Assembly (NCBI GenBank): GCA_003599145.1
Contig: QZIT01000005.1
Span: forward strand, 127,961-191,960
Length of the DNA: 64,000 nucleotides
Direction: 5' to 3'
DNA from: Candidatus Woesearchaeota archaeon
Lineage (GTDB): Archaea > Nanobdellota > Nanobdellia > Woesearchaeales > UBA9642
Shown: positions 12,531-55,452 of the stretch, one piece after another
How positions within the stretch are numbered: the first letter of the stretch is position 1
Layout of the letters: each line of letters begins with the position of its first letter
Made by a program: the position numbers and the translations under genes
The notes under the pieces: generated by a model
What the model saw: the letters and a program-made list of their open reading frames with translations, nothing else
What the model was told of the DNA's origin: nothing
The model's database searches: none

Positions 12531-12887
12531 TTATGACTGCATTGCACGAGAAGGAAGAGTTGCAACATAGTCTTTTATTTTATTGCTCCCATACATAACG
12601 GTCGCATGATGCCAATTGCCTTGTGCAGCAATGCTTGTCCACGTCATTTTTAAGCCAGTTCTGCAAACATAATAGAACCCCTGTCTCCAAGTAACTAAAG
12701 GCTCATATCTTCTATGGCCTAATAATTCCTCTTTTGAAATATTTCCTGCATTGCAAAGTTGTTCAACGGCAGTATCAAGAGTTAAACCTGATTGATGAAC
12801 AAGCACATTAACCGTTCCTGCAATATGGTTCATCTCTTTATCAGTCATGCGCGGCTTAACAGATGTGCGATGCTTGGATGGCGCCAT
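12531..12887 (-). CDS. hypothetical protein
   Basis: 118-aa ORF, no motif recognised. Confidence 0.4.
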   Translation of the reverse strand: MAPSKHRTSVKPRMTDKEMNHIAGTVNVLVHQSGLTLDTAVEQLCNAGNISKEELLGHRRYEPLVTWRQGFYYVCRTGLKMTWTSIAAQGNWHHATVMYGSNKIKDYVATLPSRAMQS

Positions 12888-20456: not shown

Positions 20457-20990
20457 TTAAAGCGGTTTAGGGATGCTGTCCTTTATGTCCTTAAAAGAAA
20501 CTTTGATTGCTCGTTTTTTGAGCCGCTCGTAATCAGATATCGCTTTATTAATCATGACGTAGGCAGCATCCTGAGCAAAAAGAAAGTTTTTATCTGTGTC
20601 ATCAAATTTCTCTATACCCTTTTTATTGTATGGAATTGCAACGATTACTGATAAATTGTCAATATATTCTGGATGGCGCATTTTTCCAGCATCTAAGGAA
20701 ATTCTTCCTTCCGGACGAGTGTCTTGTTGATGGTAGATTATATGTTCATCACGCTCAAAGGGCATATCCTTAAAATCGTCAGCGATTATCTCTATGTCTG
20801 CAGTAAGGGTGCCAAGAAAAGGAACTTGAACTTTCAGTCTATAATCAACCTTTGCGCGTGTGATAGTAAGTTTTAAGCCTTGATTGCTCGTAAGTACTCC
20901 CCCTTCATACTTGCAGTCATGAATATATCTGCCTCCTGTTGATAGCACAAGGCTGATTTCTCTAGATTCAATAACCGCATCCAAAGTCAT
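20457..20990 (-). CDS. hypothetical protein, paralog B (177 aa)
   Basis: Starts MTLDAVIESR; C-terminal AYVMINKAISDYER; tandem with paralog A, 38-nt spacer. Confidence 0.55.
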   Translation of the reverse strand: MTLDAVIESREISLVLSTGGRYIHDCKYEGGVLTSNQGLKLTITRAKVDYRLKVQVPFLGTLTADIEIIADDFKDMPFERDEHIIYHQQDTRPEGRISLDAGKMRHPEYIDNLSVIVAIPYNKKGIEKFDDTDKNFLFAQDAAYVMINKAISDYERLKKRAIKVSFKDIKDSIPKPL

Positions 20991-30046: not shown

Positions 30047-30376
30047 TTATGCTTTAGTGAAGATAGTACAGAGTGCGCCTTCTACTTTTTTTATTGTTTT
30101 TTCCTTTATATGCCCTATTTTATAGGAAATAATAGCTGTATCCGCTGTGAACAATCTTGCAGGTTTAATAAAACTATCAAGAGGAAGTTTTCCGTGTTGA
30201 AAATCAGTTTGCTTTAAAGCAATAAGGCCTTCATCCTCTTGACTGGTAATAAGCGAAAGAATAACATCATTTCCCTGCAGGACTGCAACAACTAGGCTTG
30301 GCCTTTTTTTAGTCGCTGTCAAGTCTGAAAATGGAAAAGGCAAAACAACAACGTCTCCTTTCATAAGTCTTTCCAT
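30047..30376 (-). CDS. PemK/MazF-like toxin
   Basis: GDVVVLPFPFSDLTATKKRPSLVVAV typical MazF/PemK N-terminus. Confidence 0.7.
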   Translation of the reverse strand: MERLMKGDVVVLPFPFSDLTATKKRPSLVVAVLQGNDVILSLITSQEDEGLIALKQTDFQHGKLPLDSFIKPARLFTADTAIISYKIGHIKEKTIKKVEGALCTIFTKA

Positions 30377-33509: not shown

Positions 33510-33545
33510 AAAACTTAATAAACAACCGACGTTTCTTTAGATTGC

Positions 33546-33629
33546 GCCGTGGTCGCATAACCTGGTATTGCGCGAGTTTCGAAAACTCGTTTCCGCAAGG
33601 AGTTCTCGGTTCAAATCCGAGCCACGGCG
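33546..33629 (+). tRNA. tRNA-Ser (anticodon CGA), class II with long variable arm
   Basis: Hand-folded: acceptor GCCGTGG/CCACGGC, D-stem GCA/TGC with GG in the loop, anticodon stem CGAGT/ACTCG, loop TTCGAAA, variable arm about 15 nt, T-stem CTCGG/CCGAG, T-loop TTCAAAT, discriminator G, CCA not encoded. Confidence 0.85.
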
Positions 33630-33687
33630 TTTTTTTCAATTACATCGCATCTTCTTCAAGGAAAAGAAAAAAAAAATTTAATATTGA

Positions 33688-37125: not shown

Positions 37126-37437
37126 TTAGCGCCGTTTTGTGAAATCATCCTGCATATCGCAGAACATAGCAACAAACTTTTTCGTTGCAACAACGAGCTC
37201 TTTTTTTCCTTTTTGGGTCAGCGCATATTTTTTTTCCTTTCCGCCGTCAGAAATCTCTCTGATGAACTCAGATTCATGTAACCCCTTGAGGACAGGATAG
37301 ACAGTGCCGGGACTTGGCTTGGTGCCTTTGCGCCTTTCAATTTCCTGCCTGATATCCTCTCCAGACATGGGCTTTTTGCTAATGAGGCGTAAAACAAGAA
37401 ACGTAAGATAGCCTCTCATGTCGCAGCAGGTTTTCAT
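37126..37437 (-). CDS. PadR-family transcriptional regulator
   Basis: GYLTFLVLRLISKKPMSGEDIRQEIERRKGTKPSPGTVYPVLKGLHESEFI is the canonical PadR wHTH. Confidence 0.85.
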   Translation of the reverse strand: MKTCCDMRGYLTFLVLRLISKKPMSGEDIRQEIERRKGTKPSPGTVYPVLKGLHESEFIREISDGGKEKKYALTQKGKKELVVATKKFVAMFCDMQDDFTKRR

Positions 37438-42744: not shown

Positions 42745-43194
42745 TTATCGCACAGTGGTAAGCAAAGCTCCCTGTGCAACATGGCTTGCTGTTCCGCCAA
42801 CCCGGGTATAGTTAATAAGAATATTTACAGTGCTTTTTGAGCTTTGAGTAAACGCAGGACTTGCAAAGGTGCAGGTAAAATTCGCATTTTGGCTTATGAA
42901 AATAACTTGAGGAGCATTGCAATTCACGGTAAAAATGCCTGTGTCATCATTCGAAACGCGTATAGAGTTCACCGTAATATCCCGCTCAAAGCCGTTTCTC
43001 AGCTGCAGCTTTACCTGAGTTTGATTTAAAGAGTATTCAGTACAGGGCAATTCTGGAATAGTGTCACAGTAATCTTTTTGCAGGGTATTGACATCTAAAA
43101 ATCCAAAGTAGACAATGGCGCCAATGGCAGTTATTACTACCAGCAATGCCCAGCCATAGGTTGTCATAAATTCCAAAGATGCCTGTGCTTTCAT
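42745..43194 (-). CDS. archaeal type IV pilin-like protein (class III signal peptide)
   Basis: MKAQASLEFMTTYGWALLVVITAIGAIVYFG: K-A|Q cleavage context, Glu at +5, hydrophobic helix. Confidence 0.7.
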   Translation of the reverse strand: MKAQASLEFMTTYGWALLVVITAIGAIVYFGFLDVNTLQKDYCDTIPELPCTEYSLNQTQVKLQLRNGFERDITVNSIRVSNDDTGIFTVNCNAPQVIFISQNANFTCTFASPAFTQSSKSTVNILINYTRVGGTASHVAQGALLTTVR

Positions 43195-43260: not shown

Positions 43261-43788
43261 TTATGGAACGTTGATATACACTTCCCCTTTTTGCTGTTTA
43301 GGATAGTTCACGTCAGTGTAATAGTTGATGGTGAACTCGAATTTTGTTTTTCGTCCAGCTTCAAGAAACGATCCAGTTGTACAGTCAATTTCCACTTCTG
43401 TTTCTGCGTTAATAGCAAACGTTGCAGTACCTGCTCCTGCCAAATTCGTAGCTCCAAAGAAGGTAGTACATGTTCCCAATCCACCTGCGCCTGTTGGAGG
43501 ATCATTAATGACAACATCGTCAATAGTTACCTGTTTTCCCAGCTTGTTTTTAAGCAAAAATTTCACATTATAGCTTCCGCCATCTGCAGGTGCTACTATA
43601 TTAACACTCGTAGCAAGCATCTTGTCCTTATCGCACAAGAATTCAATACCGAAATTGCATCGTTCAGAAACAAATGCATCGGGCCTTAATACTCCAAAAT
43701 ATGCCAATGCTCCAATCATGACCAGAATAACTAAAAACGCCCAACCATAGGTTGTCAAAAATTCCAAAGCTGCCTGCGCTCTTTTCAT
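43261..43788 (-). CDS. archaeal type IV pilin-like protein (class III signal peptide)
   Basis: MKRAQAALEFLTTYGWAFLVILVMIGALAYFG (start re-set from the track's 43923 to this Met); paralog of the adjacent pilin. Confidence 0.7.
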   Translation of the reverse strand: MKRAQAALEFLTTYGWAFLVILVMIGALAYFGVLRPDAFVSERCNFGIEFLCDKDKMLATSVNIVAPADGGSYNVKFLLKNKLGKQVTIDDVVINDPPTGAGGLGTCTTFFGATNLAGAGTATFAINAETEVEIDCTTGSFLEAGRKTKFEFTINYYTDVNYPKQQKGEVYINVP

Positions 43789-43926
43789 TACAACACCTCT
43801 TTTAAAATAATACAGTGATTTCTGAATATCTGTATATATAAAGTTTTTGCTTTTGGAAAAGTTTTTATAATAAAGAACGAAACTCAATTTATGACATTTC
43901 CGCAATTCAAGAACAAACACCAATTC

Positions 43927-45092: not shown

Positions 45093-46871
45093 ATGAGATA
45101 TACCTCTACAGTGAAAGCTGCAACTATCGCATTCATGCTTCTTTTATTCATTCCAGGAGTGCTTGCAAACATGTTTGATGACATGTTACGGCCATTTCAG
45201 GGAGTTGATTTTGGAGCAACCTATCAAACCTATGCGCCTTTTATTGATGGATTGCTGTTCTTTTTCATTTTCTATGGATTATCGAAATTTGTTTTCCATA
45301 AAAAATTTGGCGCTCAAGCAAACATGATCGGGATAGGCATTTCTCTTGCACTGGCATTTTCAGCAGCAGTGTTTGAATTGCGCACTGGCTTCAGAATGGG
45401 AGATTTAGGACCTATTGCTATTTTGCTGTTTTTTGGATTTATTTTTTATACGGTATACACCTTAACAAAAGGCTTAGGCAGCGGAAAGTGGATAGCTTTT
45501 GGCGTTACCTTTCTGTTATTATTTGGCATACTGCAAAACATTTTAGGAAGCTTTTTCCAGCAGAATGGGTGGATTCAAGCGTTAATGGGCATCATGCTCA
45601 TTGCAAGCGTTATAGGAATTATTGTTGGATTAGTTGGATTATTCAAAGGAAAAGGCAGTTCATCAAACAATGTAAATACAGAAGTAAGGCAGGAAAGAGA
45701 ACAGATAAGGAATGCAGATAAAGAACAGAAAAGACAGGTGCAGCAGTTTATGCAAGATGAAAATAAACTACAGCAATTAAACCAGCACCTTGCAAATTTA
45801 GAAGCAGCAGATACGCAATTAGCCCAGCAAATACAGGTAGATACCAGCGATGAATATAGAGAATATGAAGATATAAGAAAAATAGTGCGAGATATGGGCT
45901 GGATGCTGCAAAATCACGTTTTGCCTGCCTATAAATATGCTGAACAAAAACAAAGAGAACTGCAAAAAGGCAATATTCTTGACCCAAATCAAATGCAGCA
46001 GTATCAAACAGGCATTCAAAATGCATTTACCTACATTAGAAATATCCTTACGAGAATCAACCAATCTTTGGGAACCTACAACGCACGATTGATACAACTG
46101 CAGGAATCTCTTTATAAAAAAGACAAGGAAGTTGAACAGCGCAGAATTGCCTTTAGAGAAGAGCAGAGAGATGAATTAGGACAGATGGGTGTTGATGTCC
46201 AATTAACCGAATTAGGAAAAGATGCCCAGAAGTTGTTTAAAGAATATATGAATATTAAGAACAAGATTAAAAAAATTGCAGGAATTTTAGCAGTAGTCCT
46301 GAGAAGCAAAAAGTACGGGCCAGAAGATGATGCATCTGCATTCAGAAAAGCAGAACAATATTCTATTGATGCCAACAGATTAATACAAACCATCAATGCA
46401 GAACAGCAGAATGTCATTGAAGGAGAAAGAAGCATTAAAAAAGATGTTGACATGATGTGGAAATTGATGAATGCAGAAGGTGAAAATGTAAGGCAGCAGG
46501 AAGCACTTTTAAAATCTGCATTTGATGTTTCGCAGGATTTAGCAGCTGCATTAAACCAGCCTATTAGCCAGAAAATGGTTGACCAAGTGAAAAATAAACT
46601 GATGGAACTGTACCAAAAAACAGAAATTGCAGGAACAAAATTAATGGAAGAAGTAGACATCGTAAAAAGAGTGCAGGAAATCAAGCAGGATAAGGAAAGC
46701 ATGGAGCAAAGAATTAAAATTCTTGAAGACAAATACAAGAATTATCTCGCAAGATTGTTTAAAGACTTTGAAAGATATGAAGATATTCTTAAGGGTGTCC
46801 AGAATGCTGCAGGTGCAAACGCTCAACAGGTACAACAAAACAACATGATAGGCCAACCGCCTGTTTCTTAA
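45093..46871 (+). CDS. membrane-anchor module (about 190 aa, 4-5 TM) + about 400-aa coiled-coil domain
   Basis: N-terminal module homologous to that of 47724..48851 (shared FIDG-containing block); rest Q/E/K-rich heptads. Confidence 0.6.
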   Translation: MRYTSTVKAATIAFMLLLFIPGVLANMFDDMLRPFQGVDFGATYQTYAPFIDGLLFFFIFYGLSKFVFHKKFGAQANMIGIGISLALAFSAAVFELRTGFRMGDLGPIAILLFFGFIFYTVYTLTKGLGSGKWIAFGVTFLLLFGILQNILGSFFQQNGWIQALMGIMLIASVIGIIVGLVGLFKGKGSSSNNVNTEVRQEREQIRNADKEQKRQVQQFMQDENKLQQLNQHLANLEAADTQLAQQIQVDTSDEYREYEDIRKIVRDMGWMLQNHVLPAYKYAEQKQRELQKGNILDPNQMQQYQTGIQNAFTYIRNILTRINQSLGTYNARLIQLQESLYKKDKEVEQRRIAFREEQRDELGQMGVDVQLTELGKDAQKLFKEYMNIKNKIKKIAGILAVVLRSKKYGPEDDASAFRKAEQYSIDANRLIQTINAEQQNVIEGERSIKKDVDMMWKLMNAEGENVRQQEALLKSAFDVSQDLAAALNQPISQKMVDQVKNKLMELYQKTEIAGTKLMEEVDIVKRVQEIKQDKESMEQRIKILEDKYKNYLARLFKDFERYEDILKGVQNAAGANAQQVQQNNMIGQPPVS

Positions 46872-47723: not shown

Positions 47724-48851
47724 ATGAAGAAGATATCAGTATATTTAGCAGTACTGCTCCTTTTTTCGTCTTTAGCATTGGCGTTTGACCCTTTAACAAC
47801 CATTATAGATCCTTTTAGGGAAATAGATTTTGCATCGTTCTATTTAGGAGCGTATTATTTCATTGACGGCATTATCTACTTGATGATTTTTTTAGGGTTG
47901 GGAATGTTTGTTTTCAAGAAATATTACCAGCAAAATGCCAAGCCTATTGTCATAGGTGTTGGTTTAGCTTTAACTTTCGCAGCGACATATTTTGAATACC
48001 TAACAGGATTTAATTTAGGCCAATTGTATCCTATAGCTGCCATCATCATCTTATTTATCATGATTTTCTTGATTTATGAATTCATGCATTCGTTCATCAA
48101 TGACGTTGGAGCATCTGCTTCCATCGCAATGCTTTTGGGAGCAGCAATGCTGATGAGCATCTTCACAGGCATTTATGATTGGTTAGTCCAGAATTCTCCT
48201 TTAGGCGCTGCGTTAGTGCATTTGGCAGTTGTCTTTGCGTTTGTTTTATTGATTATCAGGTTATTCAGATTATTTGGAAATGGACAGAATGCTGGAACAC
48301 CTGGACAACAAGGACCTGCAGGTCCCCAAGGACCACCTGGAAATCAAGGAATACCAGGACAAGGAGGCGGACCAGGAATGCCTGGACAGCCAGGACCTAT
48401 TGGACCGCCAGGGCAAGGAGGAGGAAACCCGCCAAATCCACCAGGACAACCATTAACAGTGCAAATTGCAGTGCCTGGAAGAAACGGACAGCAATTCCAG
48501 CAAGGGCAATTGCCTCATCTTGAAGCAGTTATTCGAGGAGGAACATCTCCTTATTATTTTAGATGGACAATCAATGGTCAGCAGGCAGGACAAGGGCAAA
48601 CTAACGGACATGCACGCACTCAAATCAATCCATTGCCCCCTGGAAGATATCACGCGATTATTGAAGTGACTGATACAGCAAACCATATTGCTGCAGACCA
48701 AAGAGATTTTGTTATTACAGGAGGTAATCCTTTGCAAGTACAAGTGCAACCTATCACACATCCCGTAGCACCAAACGGAAACGTTACGGTTAACCTTAAT
48801 ATTCAAGGAGGACAGCCTCCTTATACTATACAACCAATCATCAATCCATAA
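47724..48851 (+). CDS. membrane-anchor module + collagen-like Gly-X-Y repeats + Ig-like (GxPPY) repeats; probably the N-terminal part of a split gene
   Basis: 17 uninterrupted G-X-Y triplets ([57 protein letters not shown]); [10 protein letters not shown] and [10 protein letters not shown] Ig-like repeat motifs. Confidence 0.6.
48282..48451 (+). repeat. collagen-like G-X-Y coding repeat (DNA level)
   Basis: gga/ggc-cca/cct triplet periodicity across about 170 nt. Confidence 0.6.
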
Positions 48852-48852
48852 C

Positions 48853-51657
48853 ATGGCATACAAAATAAAAGACGACGGAAAACTTCCCAAAGAGGGAAAC
48901 GCAGAGGTAGATATTAATTTAAGTAAATTTAACAATATCCGTGCGGATAAACCAAATGCTTTGGTATTTAGAGTTACTGACAGCGCAGGGAATGTTGCCG
49001 TAAGCGATCCTGTTTATTTTACTATTAGACAGCAGTTTTCTGTAAAAATAGTCCATCCAAAAGGAGAATATCCTGAAGGAGAGCTTGTTCCTTTAAGAGC
49101 AGAGATAAATCAGGGAATGTCTCCGTATACTTATGAATTCTTTATTGATGGAAATGCTTTAGGACCAAGAAGACAGACTAATGATGCAATCATTCAAAGT
49201 CAACTGCCTCCTCAATTATTTGCTCCAAATAACTTAGGACCTGGAAAACATGAACTGACCATAACCGTTGAAGACCATCAGGGAGCAAAAACAGCAGACA
49301 GAGCAGAATTTGAAATAAAAACAGGAACGGCAATGGACTTTGATATTATTTCTCCGACTAAAAAAGAGTGGAATGAAGGCGAAGAAATTCCCTTTGCAAT
49401 TCAGATTAAAAATGGAAAGGAACCGTATGCAATATTTGCCTATGTCAATAGCGAGACAAGAACTAGTGAGAACGCCATTTTTGCCAAAATTGATATTCAA
49501 GGGCTTACGGACAATACATTCGCTTTAGAGCATGCGTATGCAAAAATCCTTGACATGCTGAAGAGAGGAGTTCTTAAAAGAGGAAAGGAATTTGTCGTTT
49601 ACATCGAAGTGAATGACGGCGTCAATAGCCAAGAAAATAAAGCAAGATTCCAGAGAATAAAGCCTATTACCTTAACGATTGCTCCTTCTGGCAAACTCAT
49701 GATTAATGTAGTGGCTCCTGCAGAAAATCAGCTCATACCTCAAAACGAACCTATATCTTTTGACTTCACCATTGTCAATGGACAGCCTCCTTATCAATAT
49801 GTTATCAGGGCAAGAAACCAAAGAAGAAGCATTGACTTCAGCAAAGAAGGAGAAAACATAACAAATCCTCATTTCGATTTCGCCATAGCGCACAGCTTTC
49901 CTGAAGGTGATGAACGATTGACTATTGCCGTCATTGACAGCTTAAAAAGAACTGTGCAGGTTGACCGAAACATCAAGATTGTTTCTCCTGTTGATATTCT
50001 TACCGTGAATATTGCGTCTCCAACAGAGGAACAGGTAGTGCAAAAAGAATTGCCTGTTGACCTAGAATTCACTGTTCTAGAGGGCAAAGAACCGTATACC
50101 TGCGAACTTTTGATTGTTGGTGAGGGCAGAAGAGAAGTGTATAAGAAAAGCTGGAAAGCAAACAATGCTCTAGTCCACGAGCAAGTATTATTGACAACCT
50201 ATGAAGGAAAAGCAGAAATTCTTTTAAGAATTACCGATGCAAATCAGAGAAAAGGCATTGCGCGCAGAAAGTTTGTTGTTTTCAGCATGTATAAGCCAAC
50301 ACCACCCTTATTGCCTCCTCCTCCAGGAACAGACGATACTATTCCCCAGGACCCTGATCAAAAAAGTCCTTTCAGAATTACCGATGTAAAAAGCGGAGCA
50401 GCAATACAAAAGCTGCTCAAAGACTATCAGGCAACAGAAGAACGATTGCGAAAACATAGAGCATATCTAGATTCATTCAGCAGCGACGAAGAACTCATGC
50501 AAGACCCTGCGCTGCAGGTTTATTTGAAAAGAATAATCGAAGCAGAGCAAAGAGTGCAGCAGGGTTATGAACTCATAAGGGGAAAAAGATATGCTGAAGC
50601 AGAAAATCAGCTTAAAATCATCCAAAGAATACTTGGTTTTCTTGACGACAGTTTAGAAAAAGTAAAGAGCATCGTGAAAGCGTTCAGAGAAACCAAAGGA
50701 CCGGAAGAGTTAGTCAGGGCATTGCAGCAGATTGAAGAAAAATTGAATTATCATCAAAAATTAGTAACAGAAGTTGAAACGCACGAAGACATAAAAAAGA
50801 GCCATGTAGTCATACAATACGCACTAAATTTAAGGGATGCATTTACCAAATTAAGAGAGTGCAAAGAACTGGTGCGAGGCAAGAATTACCAGTATGCCCA
50901 AAGAAGGTTCAGGCTTTTACTGCATCGCGTTCAATATCTCGACAGGGCTGAGCAAAAAATAAGAGTAATACTGCAGGCCAAGCTGACACAACAAATTGAA
51001 GAACTGACAAATGTAAAGCTCACTCAAAGAGATCTATCAAAAGCAGTGAATAAAATCATACAACAACTTACGTTTTATGGGACGCTTTTCTCTGAATTGA
51101 CCAGAGAGCATCCTGAAGTAACAAGCAATGAGCTTTATGCAAGTTTAAGAACAAACATCGACCAAGGATTGAGATTGGCACAGGAAACAAGAGAACTTAT
51201 TGCACAAAATAATTTTGAAAAAGCAAAAGACAACATAGGACAATTCAGGGGAAGACTCCAGTATATTCAAGAACTGTATGACCGGATTCTCAATGGCATT
51301 GCCTTACCAGAAGCATGGAACGGGAATGTTGCAGATTTAGAGGAAGAATTAAGAATTAATTGGCAAGGCTTGGGATCAGTAAAAAGATTAATCACTGATT
51401 TACGCAATAAATACAGAGACATTGATAGCAATCCTTCATTTAAAACGTTCACCAGATTATTTGATGACGAAGCAGAGCCAAAAGTAAGAAGAGCGAGAGA
51501 TTTACTTGCTGAAAAAAGATATGCTGAAGTACGAAAATACCTCGATGACTTGGTTCCTCTCTTTGACCAGCTGAATACATTCTATGAGATGTTCATGAAG
51601 CAGATTAATCCTCGACATACACCGAGCAACAGGCCTCCGTTCGTCAAGAAAAAATAA
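48853..51657 (+). CDS. large protein: 5 or more Ig-like (SPYTY/EPYA/PPYQY) repeats + about 450-aa alpha-helical C-terminal region; no signal peptide of its own
   Basis: Starts 1 nt after the stop of the collagen-like ORF in the +1 frame; shares the GxPPY-type repeat with it. Confidence 0.55.
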   Translation: MAYKIKDDGKLPKEGNAEVDINLSKFNNIRADKPNALVFRVTDSAGNVAVSDPVYFTIRQQFSVKIVHPKGEYPEGELVPLRAEINQGMSPYTYEFFIDGNALGPRRQTNDAIIQSQLPPQLFAPNNLGPGKHELTITVEDHQGAKTADRAEFEIKTGTAMDFDIISPTKKEWNEGEEIPFAIQIKNGKEPYAIFAYVNSETRTSENAIFAKIDIQGLTDNTFALEHAYAKILDMLKRGVLKRGKEFVVYIEVNDGVNSQENKARFQRIKPITLTIAPSGKLMINVVAPAENQLIPQNEPISFDFTIVNGQPPYQYVIRARNQRRSIDFSKEGENITNPHFDFAIAHSFPEGDERLTIAVIDSLKRTVQVDRNIKIVSPVDILTVNIASPTEEQVVQKELPVDLEFTVLEGKEPYTCELLIVGEGRREVYKKSWKANNALVHEQVLLTTYEGKAEILLRITDANQRKGIARRKFVVFSMYKPTPPLLPPPPGTDDTIPQDPDQKSPFRITDVKSGAAIQKLLKDYQATEERLRKHRAYLDSFSSDEELMQDPALQVYLKRIIEAEQRVQQGYELIRGKRYAEAENQLKIIQRILGFLDDSLEKVKSIVKAFRETKGPEELVRALQQIEEKLNYHQKLVTEVETHEDIKKSHVVIQYALNLRDAFTKLRECKELVRGKNYQYAQRRFRLLLHRVQYLDRAEQKIRVILQAKLTQQIEELTNVKLTQRDLSKAVNKIIQQLTFYGTLFSELTREHPEVTSNELYASLRTNIDQGLRLAQETRELIAQNNFEKAKDNIGQFRGRLQYIQELYDRILNGIALPEAWNGNVADLEEELRINWQGLGSVKRLITDLRNKYRDIDSNPSFKTFTRLFDDEAEPKVRRARDLLAEKRYAEVRKYLDDLVPLFDQLNTFYEMFMKQINPRHTPSNRPPFVKKK

Positions 51658-51911: not shown

Positions 51912-52712
51912 CTACAAATCATCCAGAGGAGATTTAATCTTTTTCTTCTGGTCGTTGCTGATTTGCGTGTACAATTGCGTCGTCTGCAAATTGCTATGGC
52001 CTAATAATTCCTGAATCATCCTAATATCGGTTCCTTTTTCCAGCAAATGCGTAGCAAAACTGTGCCTCAAGGTATGGGGAGAAACCTTTTTTTGTATGCC
52101 TGCTTTCCGTGCAGATTTCTGGATGATTTTTTGCACGTTTCTTGGGCTGAGCGTGCCTGTTTTTCCAGGAAAAACATAATCCGTTATCTTCGATAAGTAA
52201 GGCCTTAAATCAGTAATGACCGCATCTGATAAGATAGCCATCCTGTCTTTTCCGCCTTTTCCTCGTCTTACCCAGGCAAGCTTATTGTCCATTTCTACAT
52301 CTTTCTTTTTCAATTGCAAGAGTTCAGAAACCCTCAATCCTGAAGAATACAGCAGCTTAATCATCAATTTGCTTTTTAAGGTTGGCGTAGATTCAATAAG
52401 CTGTTTTACCTCTTCTTTGCTCAAGATAGAGGGCAATTTTCGCGCTATTTTAGGAGTTTTGACATTGACAATGTTCTTTTTTAACACATCCCCGTAATAG
52501 AATTTCAAGGCAGACCTTGCCAGTGCCACCGTCGATGCATTGAGCTTTTTATCGGCAATAAGATACGCCAAATATTTCTTAATATCCTCTTCCAAAACAA
52601 CATCAGGCGTTTTTTTTGCAAAATGCAGGAACAATTGATTGTGAAACACATACGTTTTGATAGTTGTTGGACTGCAGCCTCTTAATTTTAATTCTGTTTC
52701 AAGATTTTCCAT
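51912..52712 (-). CDS. tyrosine recombinase, XerA/XerC-like (phage integrase family)
   Basis: Core-binding SPTTIKTY...; catalytic region LRHSFATHLLEKGTDIRMIQELLGHSNLQTTQLYTQI (R, HxxR, Y). Confidence 0.85.
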   Translation of the reverse strand: MENLETELKLRGCSPTTIKTYVFHNQLFLHFAKKTPDVVLEEDIKKYLAYLIADKKLNASTVALARSALKFYYGDVLKKNIVNVKTPKIARKLPSILSKEEVKQLIESTPTLKSKLMIKLLYSSGLRVSELLQLKKKDVEMDNKLAWVRRGKGGKDRMAILSDAVITDLRPYLSKITDYVFPGKTGTLSPRNVQKIIQKSARKAGIQKKVSPHTLRHSFATHLLEKGTDIRMIQELLGHSNLQTTQLYTQISNDQKKKIKSPLDDL

Positions 52713-52989: not shown

Positions 52990-53538
52990 GTGGCAATGGT
53001 TTCTTTGGTTGTCGTTGCCTTTTTTGGAGTAACCGAAGGAGCAGCAATAAGAAGAATAAGTGTTCCTTCACAGCCAGTGCAAGAAACTACAGCACCAGTT
53101 TGCTCTCTTTGCGGAGATGTCAATGGAGATAGGACTGCGTTTAATATTCAGGATAAAATGATTTTTGATAGTTATGCAAAGAATAATGGACCAGCACCTT
53201 CCTGCATGGCCCAAGCAGACTTGGACGGAGATGGCGTTGTCGGCAGTCTTGTAGACATAAGAATGTGGGAAGATGCCTATGCAGGCCGCATTACTCCTAC
53301 CTGTCAGCAAACTCCATTAACAGCAATAAACTGCCAAAAATGCGGAGATCTCAATGGAGACAGTATCGTCAATATCGTAGATGAAATGCTGATGGATGAC
53401 TTTGTTTGGAGAGGCGGAGCAGCGCCTGCATGCTTAAGCAAGGCTGATTTAAATCAGGATGGCATTATCAGCGACACTTCAGATGCGCTTTTATTGAAAA
53501 GCTATCTTTGGAAAGCAGGGCCTGAACCTGTTTGCTGA
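52990..53538 (+). CDS. secreted protein with four dockerin/EF-hand-like calcium-binding repeats (GTG start)
   Basis: GDVNGDRTAFNIQD, ADLDGDGVVGSLVD, GDLNGDSIVNIVD, ADLNQDGIISDTSD...LLKSYLWKAG; N-terminal hydrophobic segment. Confidence 0.55.
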   Translation: MAMVSLVVVAFFGVTEGAAIRRISVPSQPVQETTAPVCSLCGDVNGDRTAFNIQDKMIFDSYAKNNGPAPSCMAQADLDGDGVVGSLVDIRMWEDAYAGRITPTCQQTPLTAINCQKCGDLNGDSIVNIVDEMLMDDFVWRGGAAPACLSKADLNQDGIISDTSDALLLKSYLWKAGPEPVC

Positions 53539-53547
53539 GGTGCAACA

Positions 53548-53853
53548 ATGGAACAAAAAATGATGTACTATAGTTTAATAGCAGTAGTAGGCATGGTTGC
53601 CGTGGTCAGTTTAGTAGTCATACTTGTTGGAGCGAAGCAAAACTCATTAGCGGCAAATGCTGTCGCTCCATTAACCTATGAACAAATAGATCCTGATGGA
53701 GATGGGCCACTTCCGGTTTCCCGATGTGCCAGAGCATATGCGAGATATTATGACTCAACAACAGATGAAAACTGTGTTGACACGTACCTTATCTGCGGTG
53801 ATGTTGGCATGTTTAGGTTTTCACACGATTGTTACTCTGCAAAAGACTATTAG
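53548..53853 (+). CDS. small secreted/membrane Cys-containing protein
   Basis: TM/signal MMYYSLIAVVGMVAVVSLVVILVGA; DPDGDGP motif; 5 Cys. Confidence 0.4.
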   Translation: MEQKMMYYSLIAVVGMVAVVSLVVILVGAKQNSLAANAVAPLTYEQIDPDGDGPLPVSRCARAYARYYDSTTDENCVDTYLICGDVGMFRFSHDCYSAKDY

Positions 53854-53989
53854 TTATTACGTATAATATGCATTTTACGTACTAGTCATGCGTAAGTACG
53901 GCTAGAACGCCTTATTTTTGCTAAAAAGTAGGGGTTTTTTGATAAAACACTTCTAAATCTTTATAAACCTGAAAACAGTTCTGCAAAAC

Positions 53990-54511
53990 ATGGCATTAAG
54001 CAAGTACTTACGATTTGCAGCTGCGTATGATTCTTTAGCAGATATTTGTGGAAACGAACCTCCAACAAAGCAACTGGTAATAGCCCATATGGCGAGAAGA
54101 TTTGCGGAAGAAGAATTTAAAATGCGTTCTGGAACCACTACGGATAGAAAGGCTACCGAAGAAGCATATGTAAGCGCCATGCTCCAAAGAGAAGGCCTTG
54201 TAACAACAGGCGTTGGTTATGGCGTAGCTTTGCCTCATGGAGTAGTTGAAGTGCAGAGTGGTGTTTTACAGCCCCAGCTTGATTTGGGAGTGTATATCAT
54301 TCCAGAATTAGATTGGGAATCTTCTGACAAAAAACCTGCTCAGCTCATCTTTGCCACGTTATGCCCCAGAGATATCATTGGGGGTCATTTAAACGTTCTG
54401 GCAAGGTTAAGCTACACTTTAAAAACTGAAAAAATGAGAACCTTAATAAGGGATTCGGTAATTTCAGGAAATGAACTAGAATTAAAAAAGCTTTTAGACT
54501 ATCAACCTTAG
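53990..54511 (+). CDS. PTS EIIA type-2 (PtsN/fructose-IIA-like) domain protein, standalone
   Basis: LQREGLVTTGVGYGVALPHG (compare REKMGSTGIGNGIAIPHG with phosphorylatable His) and PAQLIFATLCPRD...HLNVLARLS match the EIIA-2 fold signature. Confidence 0.65.
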   Translation: MALSKYLRFAAAYDSLADICGNEPPTKQLVIAHMARRFAEEEFKMRSGTTTDRKATEEAYVSAMLQREGLVTTGVGYGVALPHGVVEVQSGVLQPQLDLGVYIIPELDWESSDKKPAQLIFATLCPRDIIGGHLNVLARLSYTLKTEKMRTLIRDSVISGNELELKKLLDYQP

Positions 54512-54548: not shown

Positions 54549-55106
54549 ATGAAAGAAGACGATATTCACAGAGAAATCTTAAAAGAAGCCCTTGCTGAGA
54601 AAGAGGAAAAGCCATCAAAAGTATGGCCTTATATTTGGGTAGGCATAGGCTTATTGATTATTATTTTGCTTATTTTAGCCTATACAGGAGGCATCTCAGG
54701 CATTTATTTCATCAAAGGAAGAACTGCAAGCGGAGAAATTCAAAATTTTCAAGTGGATTTTGAAGAGGGCAAGGTCATTTTTGAGCCTTCTGTCTATGAA
54801 GCGTTAAAAAACCAGTTTTTGGCAAATTACACAGCGGAATTTAAAGTCTGCCTATTGGGAGAAAAGCAGGGAAAGAACTATATTATAACAAGTTTTTACA
54901 CACCAATCATTTTCTCGCAGGATTTTACCAGTGTACACAGCGTACAGTGCAACAGCTCAACCATCATTCCCTTGCACAGCCATCCTGTAGATAGTTGTTT
55001 ATTTTCAGATCAGGATAAGGCATCATTTAAAGCATTTAAAGAGGTAAATCCTGATGCGATCTATGGATTGATGTGCTCGGCAAATCGATTTTCATTCATA
55101 AAATGA
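54549..55106 (+). CDS. membrane-anchored JAB/MPN (JAMM) metalloprotease-like protein
   Basis: N-terminal TM helix; LHSHPVDSCLFSDQD fits the JAMM motif H-x-H-x7-S-x2-D. Confidence 0.55.
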   Translation: MKEDDIHREILKEALAEKEEKPSKVWPYIWVGIGLLIIILLILAYTGGISGIYFIKGRTASGEIQNFQVDFEEGKVIFEPSVYEALKNQFLANYTAEFKVCLLGEKQGKNYIITSFYTPIIFSQDFTSVHSVQCNSSTIIPLHSHPVDSCLFSDQDKASFKAFKEVNPDAIYGLMCSANRFSFIK

Positions 55107-55152: not shown

Positions 55153-55452
55153 TTAGAAATAGCCTTTCATGCCTTTGAAATATGTTTTGATTTGGACATA
55201 GCATGATTTCAACTCTTTTTTTCCTAAAGCAGTAAGGCTATAGTGCTTTTTTCTGCCGTCCTTTTTCCACGTTACTAGTTTTTGTTTTCTGAGCCTTTTG
55301 AGCGTAGGATAAATCGTTCCTGGCGTTAAAACCTCTCCTTTGCGCATGCCAATGCTTCTGGCAAGTTCATCACCGGAAAACGGTTTTTTTGACAATTCGT
55401 GCAGAATGAAAAAAGACAAAAAACCCTTGATTTCTATTTTTGCTTTAGGCAT
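55153..55452 (-). CDS. PadR-family transcriptional regulator
   Basis: GFLSFFILHELSKKPFSGDELARSIGMRKGEVLTPGTIYPTLKRLRKQKLV. Confidence 0.85.
   Translation of the reverse strand: MPKAKIEIKGFLSFFILHELSKKPFSGDELARSIGMRKGEVLTPGTIYPTLKRLRKQKLVTWKKDGRKKHYSLTALGKKELKSCYVQIKTYFKGMKGYF

Follow-up and report, generated by a model that had tools for sequence, protein, structure and literature searches.

A PtsN-like standalone EIIA protein in a reduced woesearchaeal genome and its relatives lacking the phosphorylatable histidine

The stretch of DNA under study, referred to as the window, represents 64 kb, or ~11%, of a 576-kb contig of a Candidatus Woesearchaeota archaeon, and it is this window that the searches for partner proteins of the phosphotransferase system (PTS) cover. 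The open reading frame at positions 53990-54511 of the forward strand starts with an ATG codon and encodes a protein of 173 amino acids with one PTS_EIIA_2 domain. The choice of start codon is backed by alignment, as relatives of the protein likewise open with M-x-L-S-K-x-L. The features of the locus are listed below, in order of position.

51912-52712 (1.3 kb upstream of the EIIA gene): tyrosine recombinase, Xer-like (Pfam scan)
53960..53967, + strand: TATA-box-like element TTTATAAA, read from the sequence, 22 nt 5' of the ATG
53990..54511, + strand: EIIA type-2 (EIIA-Ntr/PtsN-like) protein, 173 aa, single-domain (PF00359, AlphaFold2, Foldseek, NCBI name)
54182..54241, + strand: active-site loop LQREGLVTTGVGYGVALPHG, residues 65-84, including Glu68 and Arg67 (Arg67 codon at 54188-54190)
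54236..54238, + strand: CAT codon of His83, counterpart of the phospho-His73 of PtsN (alignments to 1a6j and E. coli PtsN)
54386..54388, + strand: CAT codon of His133, counterpart of His120, the second active-site His of PtsN (alignments)
54549..55106, + strand: membrane-anchored JAMM/MPN+ protein, 185 aa, with an N-terminal TM helix, 37-nt gap after the EIIA gene
55153..55452, - strand: PadR-family winged-helix regulator, convergent (PF03551, 46.7 bits versus 27)

On the upstream side of the EIIA gene, a dockerin-repeat protein and a small Cys-rich protein are encoded. The TATA-like element TTTATAAA suggests that the EIIA gene may be served by its own archaeal promoter and transcribed as a leaderless or short-leader mRNA, a reading that rests on the archaeal promoter consensus. 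A scan for sigma-70 promoters and terminators gave counts not above those of shuffled sequence, the sigma-70 model not being applicable to archaea.

The original prediction identified this protein as a PTS EIIA of type 2, and a Pfam scan confirms that identity: PF00359 (PTS_EIIA_2) is matched over residues 25-155 with 61.4 bits (E=1.3e-16), and since the gathering cutoff is 27, the objection that the protein might lack a PF00359 hit fails. Both sequence motifs on which the prediction drew are present, i.e., the loop at residues 65-84 and LIFATLCPRD..HLNVLARLS at residues 118-141. An identical protein is already held by NCBI, where it bears the name 'PTS sugar transporter subunit IIA [Candidatus Woesearchaeota archaeon]'.

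The AlphaFold2 model of the window protein, obtained with a 60-sequence alignment, has a pLDDT of 92.7 and a pTM of 0.88, with lower pLDDT confined to two lineage-specific loop insertions at residues ~44-58 and ~86-97. Foldseek assigns the model to the EIIA-Mtl/Ntr alpha/beta fold with a probability of 1.00 to each of 1a6j, 3urr, 2a0j, 4gqx and 1a3a; the top six PDB matches are all EIIA-Ntr chains (E from 1e-10 to 1e-8, target-normalised TM 0.70-0.77), and below them rank EIIA-Mtl (TM 0.52-0.64) and the cytoplasmic domains of band 3. Sequence matches to the PDB follow a similar order, being headed by Neisseria EIIA-Ntr/PtsN (2a0j, E=6e-9), E. coli 1a6j and Burkholderia 3urr and 4gqx, followed by EIIA-Mtl. 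The curated equivalog models of NCBIfam are, on the other hand, all missed: those for PtsN, TIGR01419 and NF008145, give 43.2 versus 138.7 bits and 37.8 versus 221 bits, respectively, and that for the FruA IIA domain, TIGR00848, which is the best NCBIfam match, gives 49.8 versus 103.5 bits. Because these scores are far under the PtsN and FruA-IIA cutoffs, 'PtsN-like' is used here in the sense of resemblance, not orthology; the window protein is PtsN-like in architecture and fold, and an orthologue of no curated equivalog. The proposal of a standalone, PtsN-like EIIA thus stands as regards sequence, fold and the full-length single domain, and does not extend to orthology, for which the scores fall below the PtsN cutoffs.

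The NCBI name suggests a role in sugar transport, with the window protein as EIIA subunit of a PTS of the fructose/mannitol family. Such a role finds some backing in the fact that the FruA IIA domain model ranks first among the NCBIfam matches and in the breadth of PF00359, which is the Fru/Mtl/Ntr EIIA family. It is nevertheless very improbable in our judgement, given that the TIGR00848 score is far under its cutoff, that the AlphaFold2 model is nearer to EIIA-Ntr than to EIIA-Mtl in the Foldseek comparison, and that no EIIB or EIIC gene is located within the 64 kb. Furthermore, the relatives of the window protein are all standalone proteins of 150-190 amino acids, the archaeal ones among them being without the catalytic His.

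These relatives are few. When 1.84 billion cluster representatives were scanned exhaustively with HMMER, only 16 proteins reached E<=1e-10, and nothing exceeded ~42% identity. Across 185,579 species genomes (GTDB), 240 relatives were found, the best 80 of which are nearly all labelled Zixibacteria or Ignavibacteria; only two of these best 80 of 240 loci are labelled archaeal (Nanoarchaeota JAHIWS01 and Woesearchaeota CAYQXU01), in line with the earlier remark that such proteins are uncommon in archaea. Two groups of relatives can be distinguished. The first, group (a), is represented by nine standalone proteins of 157-186 amino acids (P0003, P0004, P0005, P0008, P0010, P0017, P0042, P0155 and P0156), two of which come from MAGs with archaeal labels, 'Nanoarchaeota archaeon' in the case of P0005 and 'Candidatus Woesearchaeota archaeon' in that of P0156; the contigs that carry P0003, P0005, P0008 and P0156 have a GC content of 0.30-0.35. 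The second, group (b), is a large clade of standalone proteins of 150 amino acids, mostly labelled Zixibacteria and Ignavibacteria. A bacterial origin is also evident for the full-length match L079, which is labelled 'uncultured bacterium' and lies between accA and mreC-mreD-PBP2-rodA; the L001 gene likewise adjoins accA, and P0002 is found in a type IX secretion context.

When the window protein is left out of an HMM of the nine group (a) proteins, that HMM matches it over its whole length with 119.7 bits (HMM positions 1-155 of 164), as compared to 76.5 bits for a Zixibacteria-type HMM and 97.8 bits for a broad bacterial HMM, both of which align only with its C-terminal two-thirds. For the N-terminal 58 residues taken separately, the group (a) HMM gives 12.5 bits and the Zixibacteria-type HMM -1.6 bits, and both halves of the window protein score higher with the group (a) HMM than with the bacterial HMMs, a preference which is reversed in bacterial controls. 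By this leave-out HMM test the window protein is placed in the group (a) subfamily, although its margin falls short of that seen for eight of the nine and is close to the P0004 margin. In a Kimura-distance neighbour-joining tree the ten-member clade is recovered in the point estimate with 26% bootstrap support, and the nine other proteins form a clade without the window protein in 50% of bootstrap replicates. Membership by the HMM test, taken together with these weak bootstrap values, makes the window protein a long-branched and possibly basal member of the subfamily; given the poor support of the distance tree, its gene may alternatively have been acquired from bacteria independently.

A scan of metagenomes with W[QEA][SA]MDx[KR]PV, a motif specific to group (a), recovered one already-known archaeal contig and 12 bacterial His-bearing genes, and no new archaeal members of the subfamily, which indicates that this archaeal-type subfamily is real but very rare. 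No description of a His-less EIIA-like subfamily was found in the literature searched.

The attribution of 'His-less' derives from the active site. In alignments with 1a6j and with E. coli PtsN, residues Arg67, His83 and His133 of the window protein correspond to Arg57, His73 (the phosphorylation site) and His120 of PtsN; the E. coli PtsN sequence and residue numbering agree with the 1a6j alignment. Across all 60 aligned sequences, R67, E68, T73, G74, G76, A80, P82 and D113 are invariant. The phosphorylatable His, the conservation of which had been singled out for verification, is present in the window protein as His83, and the same column holds His in 50/50 bacterial relatives, as opposed to Asn (six proteins), Met, Gln or Thr (one protein each) in the nine subfamily proteins. 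The window protein is consequently the sole subfamily member that still has the phospho-His, and among the 134 nearest representatives of at most 260 amino acids those nine proteins are the only His-less sequences. The His133 column holds His in 8/9 subfamily members and in 41/50 bacterial relatives. The remainder of the loop (R-E...TTGVG.G.A.P) is conserved in the His-less proteins, which argues for a retained, phospho-independent function.

To our knowledge, the PTS is regarded as an essentially bacterial system and regulatory EIIA-Ntr as essentially proteobacterial. In agreement with the statement in the original prediction that the window encodes no other PTS component, neither EI (PEP-utiliser) nor HPr, EIIB or EIIC domains came up when practically all ORFs of 90 amino acids or more in the 64 kb were scanned with Pfam, in part as concatenated pseudo-proteins. 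Similarly, phmmer searches of all stop-to-stop ORFs of at least 40 amino acids in the window, in which approximate sequences of E. coli HPr, B. subtilis HPr and E. coli NPr served as queries, returned only matches with E>1. An association with rpoN, hpf, rapZ, npr, PtsP or NPr was likewise not apparent, as none of these domains occurs within the 64-kb window. According to a published account (PMC8100219), the PTS is almost exclusively bacterial and has been characterised in archaea only in haloarchaea; archaea go unmentioned in a 2026 review of PTS-Ntr, and the literature searched held nothing relevant on a PTS in Woesearchaeota, DPANN or Zixibacteria.

These data bear on an alternative in which a working regulatory phosphorelay, running from EI/PtsP through HPr/NPr to EIIA, ends at the window protein, the genes for its other components being located outside the window. 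His83 would then be phosphorylated, and its phosphorylation state would set a regulatory output, as in the proteobacterial PTS-Ntr. The main argument for a relay encoded elsewhere is the retention of Arg67, His83 and His133 in this protein while its nine closest relatives have lost the phospho-His, which could mean that phosphorylation is under purifying selection in this lineage. In bacteria, moreover, the genes of PTS-Ntr are often dispersed, and the window covers only ~11% of the contig. Set against this are the lack of any EI, HPr, NPr or PEP-utiliser domain anywhere in the window, the evident ability of all other subfamily members to work without the His, the lack of any DPANN or Woesearchaeota PTS in the literature searched, and the restriction of known archaeal PTSs essentially to haloarchaea (PMC8100219). 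On balance we consider such a relay unlikely.

With regard to the genomic neighbourhood, the gene immediately downstream encodes a JAMM protein that is, as had been predicted, co-directional with the EIIA gene and membrane-anchored, and that displays the exact HxHx7Sx2D motif (HSHPVDSCLFSDQD); the claim that the EIIA gene is flanked by PadR holds for the downstream side only. The JAMM protein scores below Pfam cutoffs (Prok-JAB, 15.5 bits versus 25), and its NCBI entry from the same organism reads 'hypothetical protein C4573_02795'. A word-indexed search of 5.8 billion proteins yielded a sole relative, which is 41% identical and conserves the motif, and the gene that precedes this relative has a C-terminus that is not EIIA-like. 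A tblastn comparison located none of ten window neighbours, the JAMM and PadR genes included, in the loci of the EIIA relatives. A conserved operon with JAMM or PadR was rejected on the basis of this empty tblastn result and of the gene preceding the JAMM relative. A defence island or mobile element was also considered and discarded: PADLOC reported only weak generic wHTH and JAB matches, the recombinase is Xer-like, and the composition of the gene is native. As the JAMM and PadR genes are not conserved neighbours and PADLOC made no defence-system assignment, the neighbourhood offers no reliable functional clue.

A different gene order prevails among the relatives. In the four that have usable flanks, the genes for P0003, P0005, P0008 and P0156 are arranged tail-to-tail with a gene for a ~394-aa GTPase with MMR_HSR1, YGR210-like_G4 and TGS domains, an adjacency present in loci L002, L005, L008 and L010. 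At the closest the two genes overlap by 8 bp, at the widest they are ~65 bp apart, and an ORF of 101 amino acids intervenes once. The adjacent GTPases are 67-80% identical to one another, and the EIIA-like proteins 38-49%; the simplest explanation of this synteny is common descent, the EIIA-like gene having changed much more rapidly than the GTPase gene beside it. The window has no GTPase of this domain composition, the best tblastn match having E=0.13.

The window itself is archaeal. Archaeal markers are encoded on both sides of the EIIA gene, and those in the window comprise a thermosome/group II chaperonin (614 bits), FttA/aCPSF1 with KH domains, a proteasome subunit, L21e, S19e, L31e, TFIIE-alpha, RNA polymerase subunit L and ZPR1. 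The composition of the gene is native: relative to the 31 other window genes, its GC content is 0.410 (versus 0.389 +/- 0.022), its GC3 0.322 (versus 0.356 +/- 0.049) and its codon-usage log-likelihood -3.93 (versus -3.85 +/- 0.06), all three being within ~1.4 standard deviations. The archaeal markers, the native GC, GC3 and codon usage and the TATA-like box together make both contamination and a very recent transfer unlikely.

The finding would be an artefact if the gene came from contaminating bacterial DNA or if the contig, which is metagenome-assembled, contained a chimeric join, and a suspicion of this kind could be fed by the bacterial nature of the nearest large clade and by the tyrosine recombinase gene 1.3 kb upstream. 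YGR210-like domain GTPases are of an archaeal/eukaryotic type. The position of the EIIA gene inside a 576-kb contig with archaeal genes on either side, a composition indistinguishable from that of the window genes, and the occurrence of the related subfamily beside the YGR210-like GTPase in independent Woesearchaeota and Nanoarchaeota MAGs and on metagenome contigs whose low GC (0.30-0.35) is usual for such MAGs leave the probability of an artefact next to negligible. Contamination was accordingly rejected on the archaeal flanking genes and the native composition.

The gene may also be a relic, that is, a captured bacterial gene that drifts without a specific function and in which the His is an ancestral state not yet mutated. 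Several properties fit such a history: the protein is an extreme singleton (none above 42% identity in 1.84e9 representatives), the subfamily evolves fast by comparison with the adjacent GTPase, no conserved operon partner accompanies the gene, and the lineage-specific loop insertions show lower pLDDT. Reduced DPANN genomes, however, tend to purge useless genes, and this ORF is intact and full-length, its predicted fold is very confident, and the eight invariant core residues (R67, E68, T73, G74, G76, A80, P82 and D113) are all kept. Its composition is moreover fully ameliorated, which implies long residence without decay. A relic is for these reasons rather doubtful.

We give moderate preference, somewhat beyond an even chance, to the view that the window protein is a laterally acquired PtsN-like protein which would act as a phosphorylation-independent binding regulator without a PTS relay. 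An ancestor of some Woesearchaeota and Nanoarchaeota (DPANN) probably took up the EIIA gene from FCB-group bacteria, a donor suggested by the nearest relatives, namely the standalone 150-aa EIIA proteins of Zixibacteria and Ignavibacteria. The gene has been resident in this genome for a long time, and its product, a small regulatory protein, most likely binds and modulates partner proteins without a PTS phosphorelay, by analogy with unphosphorylated proteobacterial PtsN. Four considerations underlie this preference, namely that the sister proteins have lost the phospho-His, that they retain the loop around it, that PTS genes are absent nearby, and what the PTS literature reports; from these we infer the direction of the lateral transfer, the phosphorylation-independent action and the binding mode. 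A number of observations count against a binding regulator. His83, His133 and Arg67 are kept, as expected if the protein is still phosphorylated; EI/HPr or PtsP/NPr may lie elsewhere, the window being 64 kb of a 576-kb contig; and the gene has no conserved neighbour and is without the GTPase synteny of its relatives.

A more far-reaching variant, which we hold to be improbable, is that Woesearchaeota-type DPANN archaea captured a bacterial PtsN-like regulator and rewired it into a PTS-independent module, in which the conserved Arg/Gly-rich pocket would sense a ligand or partner instead of accepting phosphate. The window protein would in that event be a surviving His-bearing 'intermediate', maybe phosphorylated by a non-PTS donor, for which a PEP-synthase/PPDK-type phosphohistidine domain or a host-derived protein would be candidates. 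Were this variant to be true, DPANN archaea would have, in the window protein, a first case of a PTS-derived protein at work in signalling.

In this reduced DPANN genome, then, a PtsN-like protein with an intact structure is encoded by a gene that is native to its surroundings. That the protein was deposited and automatically annotated was already known, and it is a highly divergent PF00359 member that displays every defining feature tested. New here is its membership of a tiny archaeal-type subfamily that is apparently derived from FCB-group bacteria; also new are the loss of the phospho-His in all other subfamily members and the lack of conservation of the JAMM and PadR neighbours. The window protein and its His-less sisters may be viewed as a small natural experiment in which a component of a phosphorelay, once transferred between domains, would have been put to new use as a regulator that does not depend on phosphorylation. 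Metabolic reconstruction is almost certainly misled by the product name 'PTS sugar transporter subunit', and for Woesearchaeota the annotation 'PTS sugar transporter subunit IIA' should not count as evidence for sugar PTS transport; the His-less subfamily merits a family model of its own. The practical value of the finding is modest.

Of the known systems, proteobacterial PtsN (1A6J, 2A0J, 3URR/4GQX) is comparable to the window protein in that both are standalone, single-domain proteins of ~150-170 amino acids with the same alpha/beta fold and the RE...TG.G.G.A.PH loop, and neither is associated with a sugar permease. The two differ in that identity is only ~20-26%, the host of the window protein is archaeal, and the window protein has the two loop insertions (~44-58 and ~86-97) in addition. 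Furthermore, the rpoN-hpf-ptsN-rapZ-npr neighbourhood of PtsN is absent around the window gene, with no PtsP or NPr in the 64 kb.

The EIIA of the haloarchaeal fructose PTS, PtfA of Haloferax volcanii (Pickl et al. 2012, cited by PMC8100219), is likewise an archaeal EIIA of the PF00359 type and of bacterial origin. PtfA forms part of a clustered and complete EI-HPr-EIIA-EIIB-EIIC sugar uptake system, whereas the window gene is without such a partner in the 64 kb.

The closest large clade, i.e., the 150-aa EIIA proteins of Zixibacteria and Ignavibacteria (FCB group; for example P0009, P0171 and L079), is 33-49% identical to the window protein over the C-terminal two-thirds, and its members carry the motifs LVTTGVGYGVAFPH and IGAHLNVMARLSY, which are nearly identical in the window protein. 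These proteins are bacterial, all possess the His, and their N-terminal third is unlike that of the window protein. In the His-less subfamily the hosts are of low GC, with two members labelled archaeal, the position of His83 is taken by N, Q, M or T in all nine members, and the 3-5-residue insertion that follows the motif in the window protein is not shared by them, yet the N-terminal third (M-x-L-S-K-F-L-x-F-x-x-x-Y...P-x-K), Trp109 and the overall length are common to both.

The gene for the PtsN-like EIIA protein is preceded directly by two genes, and stands beside a third:

52990-53853, +, genes for a 182-aa dockerin protein and a 101-aa Cys-rich protein
54549-55106, +, orphan membrane-anchored JAMM/MPN+ protein

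The 182-aa protein carries two dockerin type I/EF-hand-like repeats (PF00404, 45.2 bits), while the 101-aa protein has one TM helix, and both are likely surface proteins. The JAMM/MPN+ protein has a single TM helix at its N-terminus and matches the HxHx7Sx2D motif exactly (HSHPVDSCLFSDQD). Its Pfam scores fell below the cutoffs, and a word-indexed search of 5.8 billion proteins returned a single relative (41% identity), in which the motif is kept.

Elsewhere in the window, the following features were recorded:

12531-12887, -, 118-aa protein with a match to the C-terminal helix-turn-helix domain of bacterial DnaA
19885-20418 and 20457-20990, -, tandem pair of paralogues, 177 aa each
30047-30376, -, MazF/PemK-type toxin gene (PF02452, 34 bits)
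33545-33630, +, tRNA-Ser(CGA), called by ARAGORN
37126-37437, -, PadR-family regulator, the second in the window (53.6 bits)
42745-43194 and 43261-43923, -, neighbouring proteins with archaeal class-III signal-peptide/pilin-like N-termini
45093-46871, 47724-48851 and 48853-51657, +, three large genes in a row (592, 375 and 934 aa)

The DnaA-type match scored 35.9 bits (E=7.7e-9), above the PF08299 cutoff of 31.5, and the window surrounding it is archaeal. Despite the ARAGORN call, Rfam at the gathering threshold returned zero matches across the whole window, the tRNA family included. Pfam matched nothing for the 177-aa paralogues, both of which begin MTLDAVI, or for the three large genes, and the pilin-like pair, which shares the N-terminal pattern ..A(Q/A)A(S/A)LEF(M/L)TTYGWA.., had no Pfam match at E<=1e-4. 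Judged by eye, the 592- and 375-aa proteins appear to have a similar N-terminal multi-TM region in common; the latter also contains a Gly/Pro-rich collagen-like stretch, while the 592- and 934-aa proteins bear long charged regions that are apparently helical.

Among relatives, the EIIA-like gene lacking the phospho-His is convergent with a gene for a GTPase of ~394 aa (MMR_HSR1, YGR210-like_G4 and TGS domains) in all four loci, which come from MAGs of Woesearchaeota and Nanoarchaeota and from similar contigs of low GC:

L002, 10001-11654, GTPase and His-less EIIA-like pair
L005, 6291-8335, the same pair
L008, 564-2237, the same pair
L010, 3557-5301, the same pair

The two genes overlap by 8 bp at one extreme and are ~65 bp apart at the other, with a 101-aa ORF lying between them in L005. 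Across these relatives the GTPases are 67-80% identical, versus only 38-49% for the EIIA-like proteins.

The bacterial sister EIIA proteins (150-152 aa, His retained) are encoded just downstream of accA:

L079, 6846-12801, bacterial sister EIIA locus
L001, 3167-5597, bacterial sister EIIA locus

In L079, mreC-mreD-PBP2-rodA follows directly downstream, and the EIIA gene does not lie in an rpoN-ptsN-type cluster. Given this accA and mreC-mreD-PBP2-rodA context, the locus of the bacterial clade is likewise not a classical ptsN locus.
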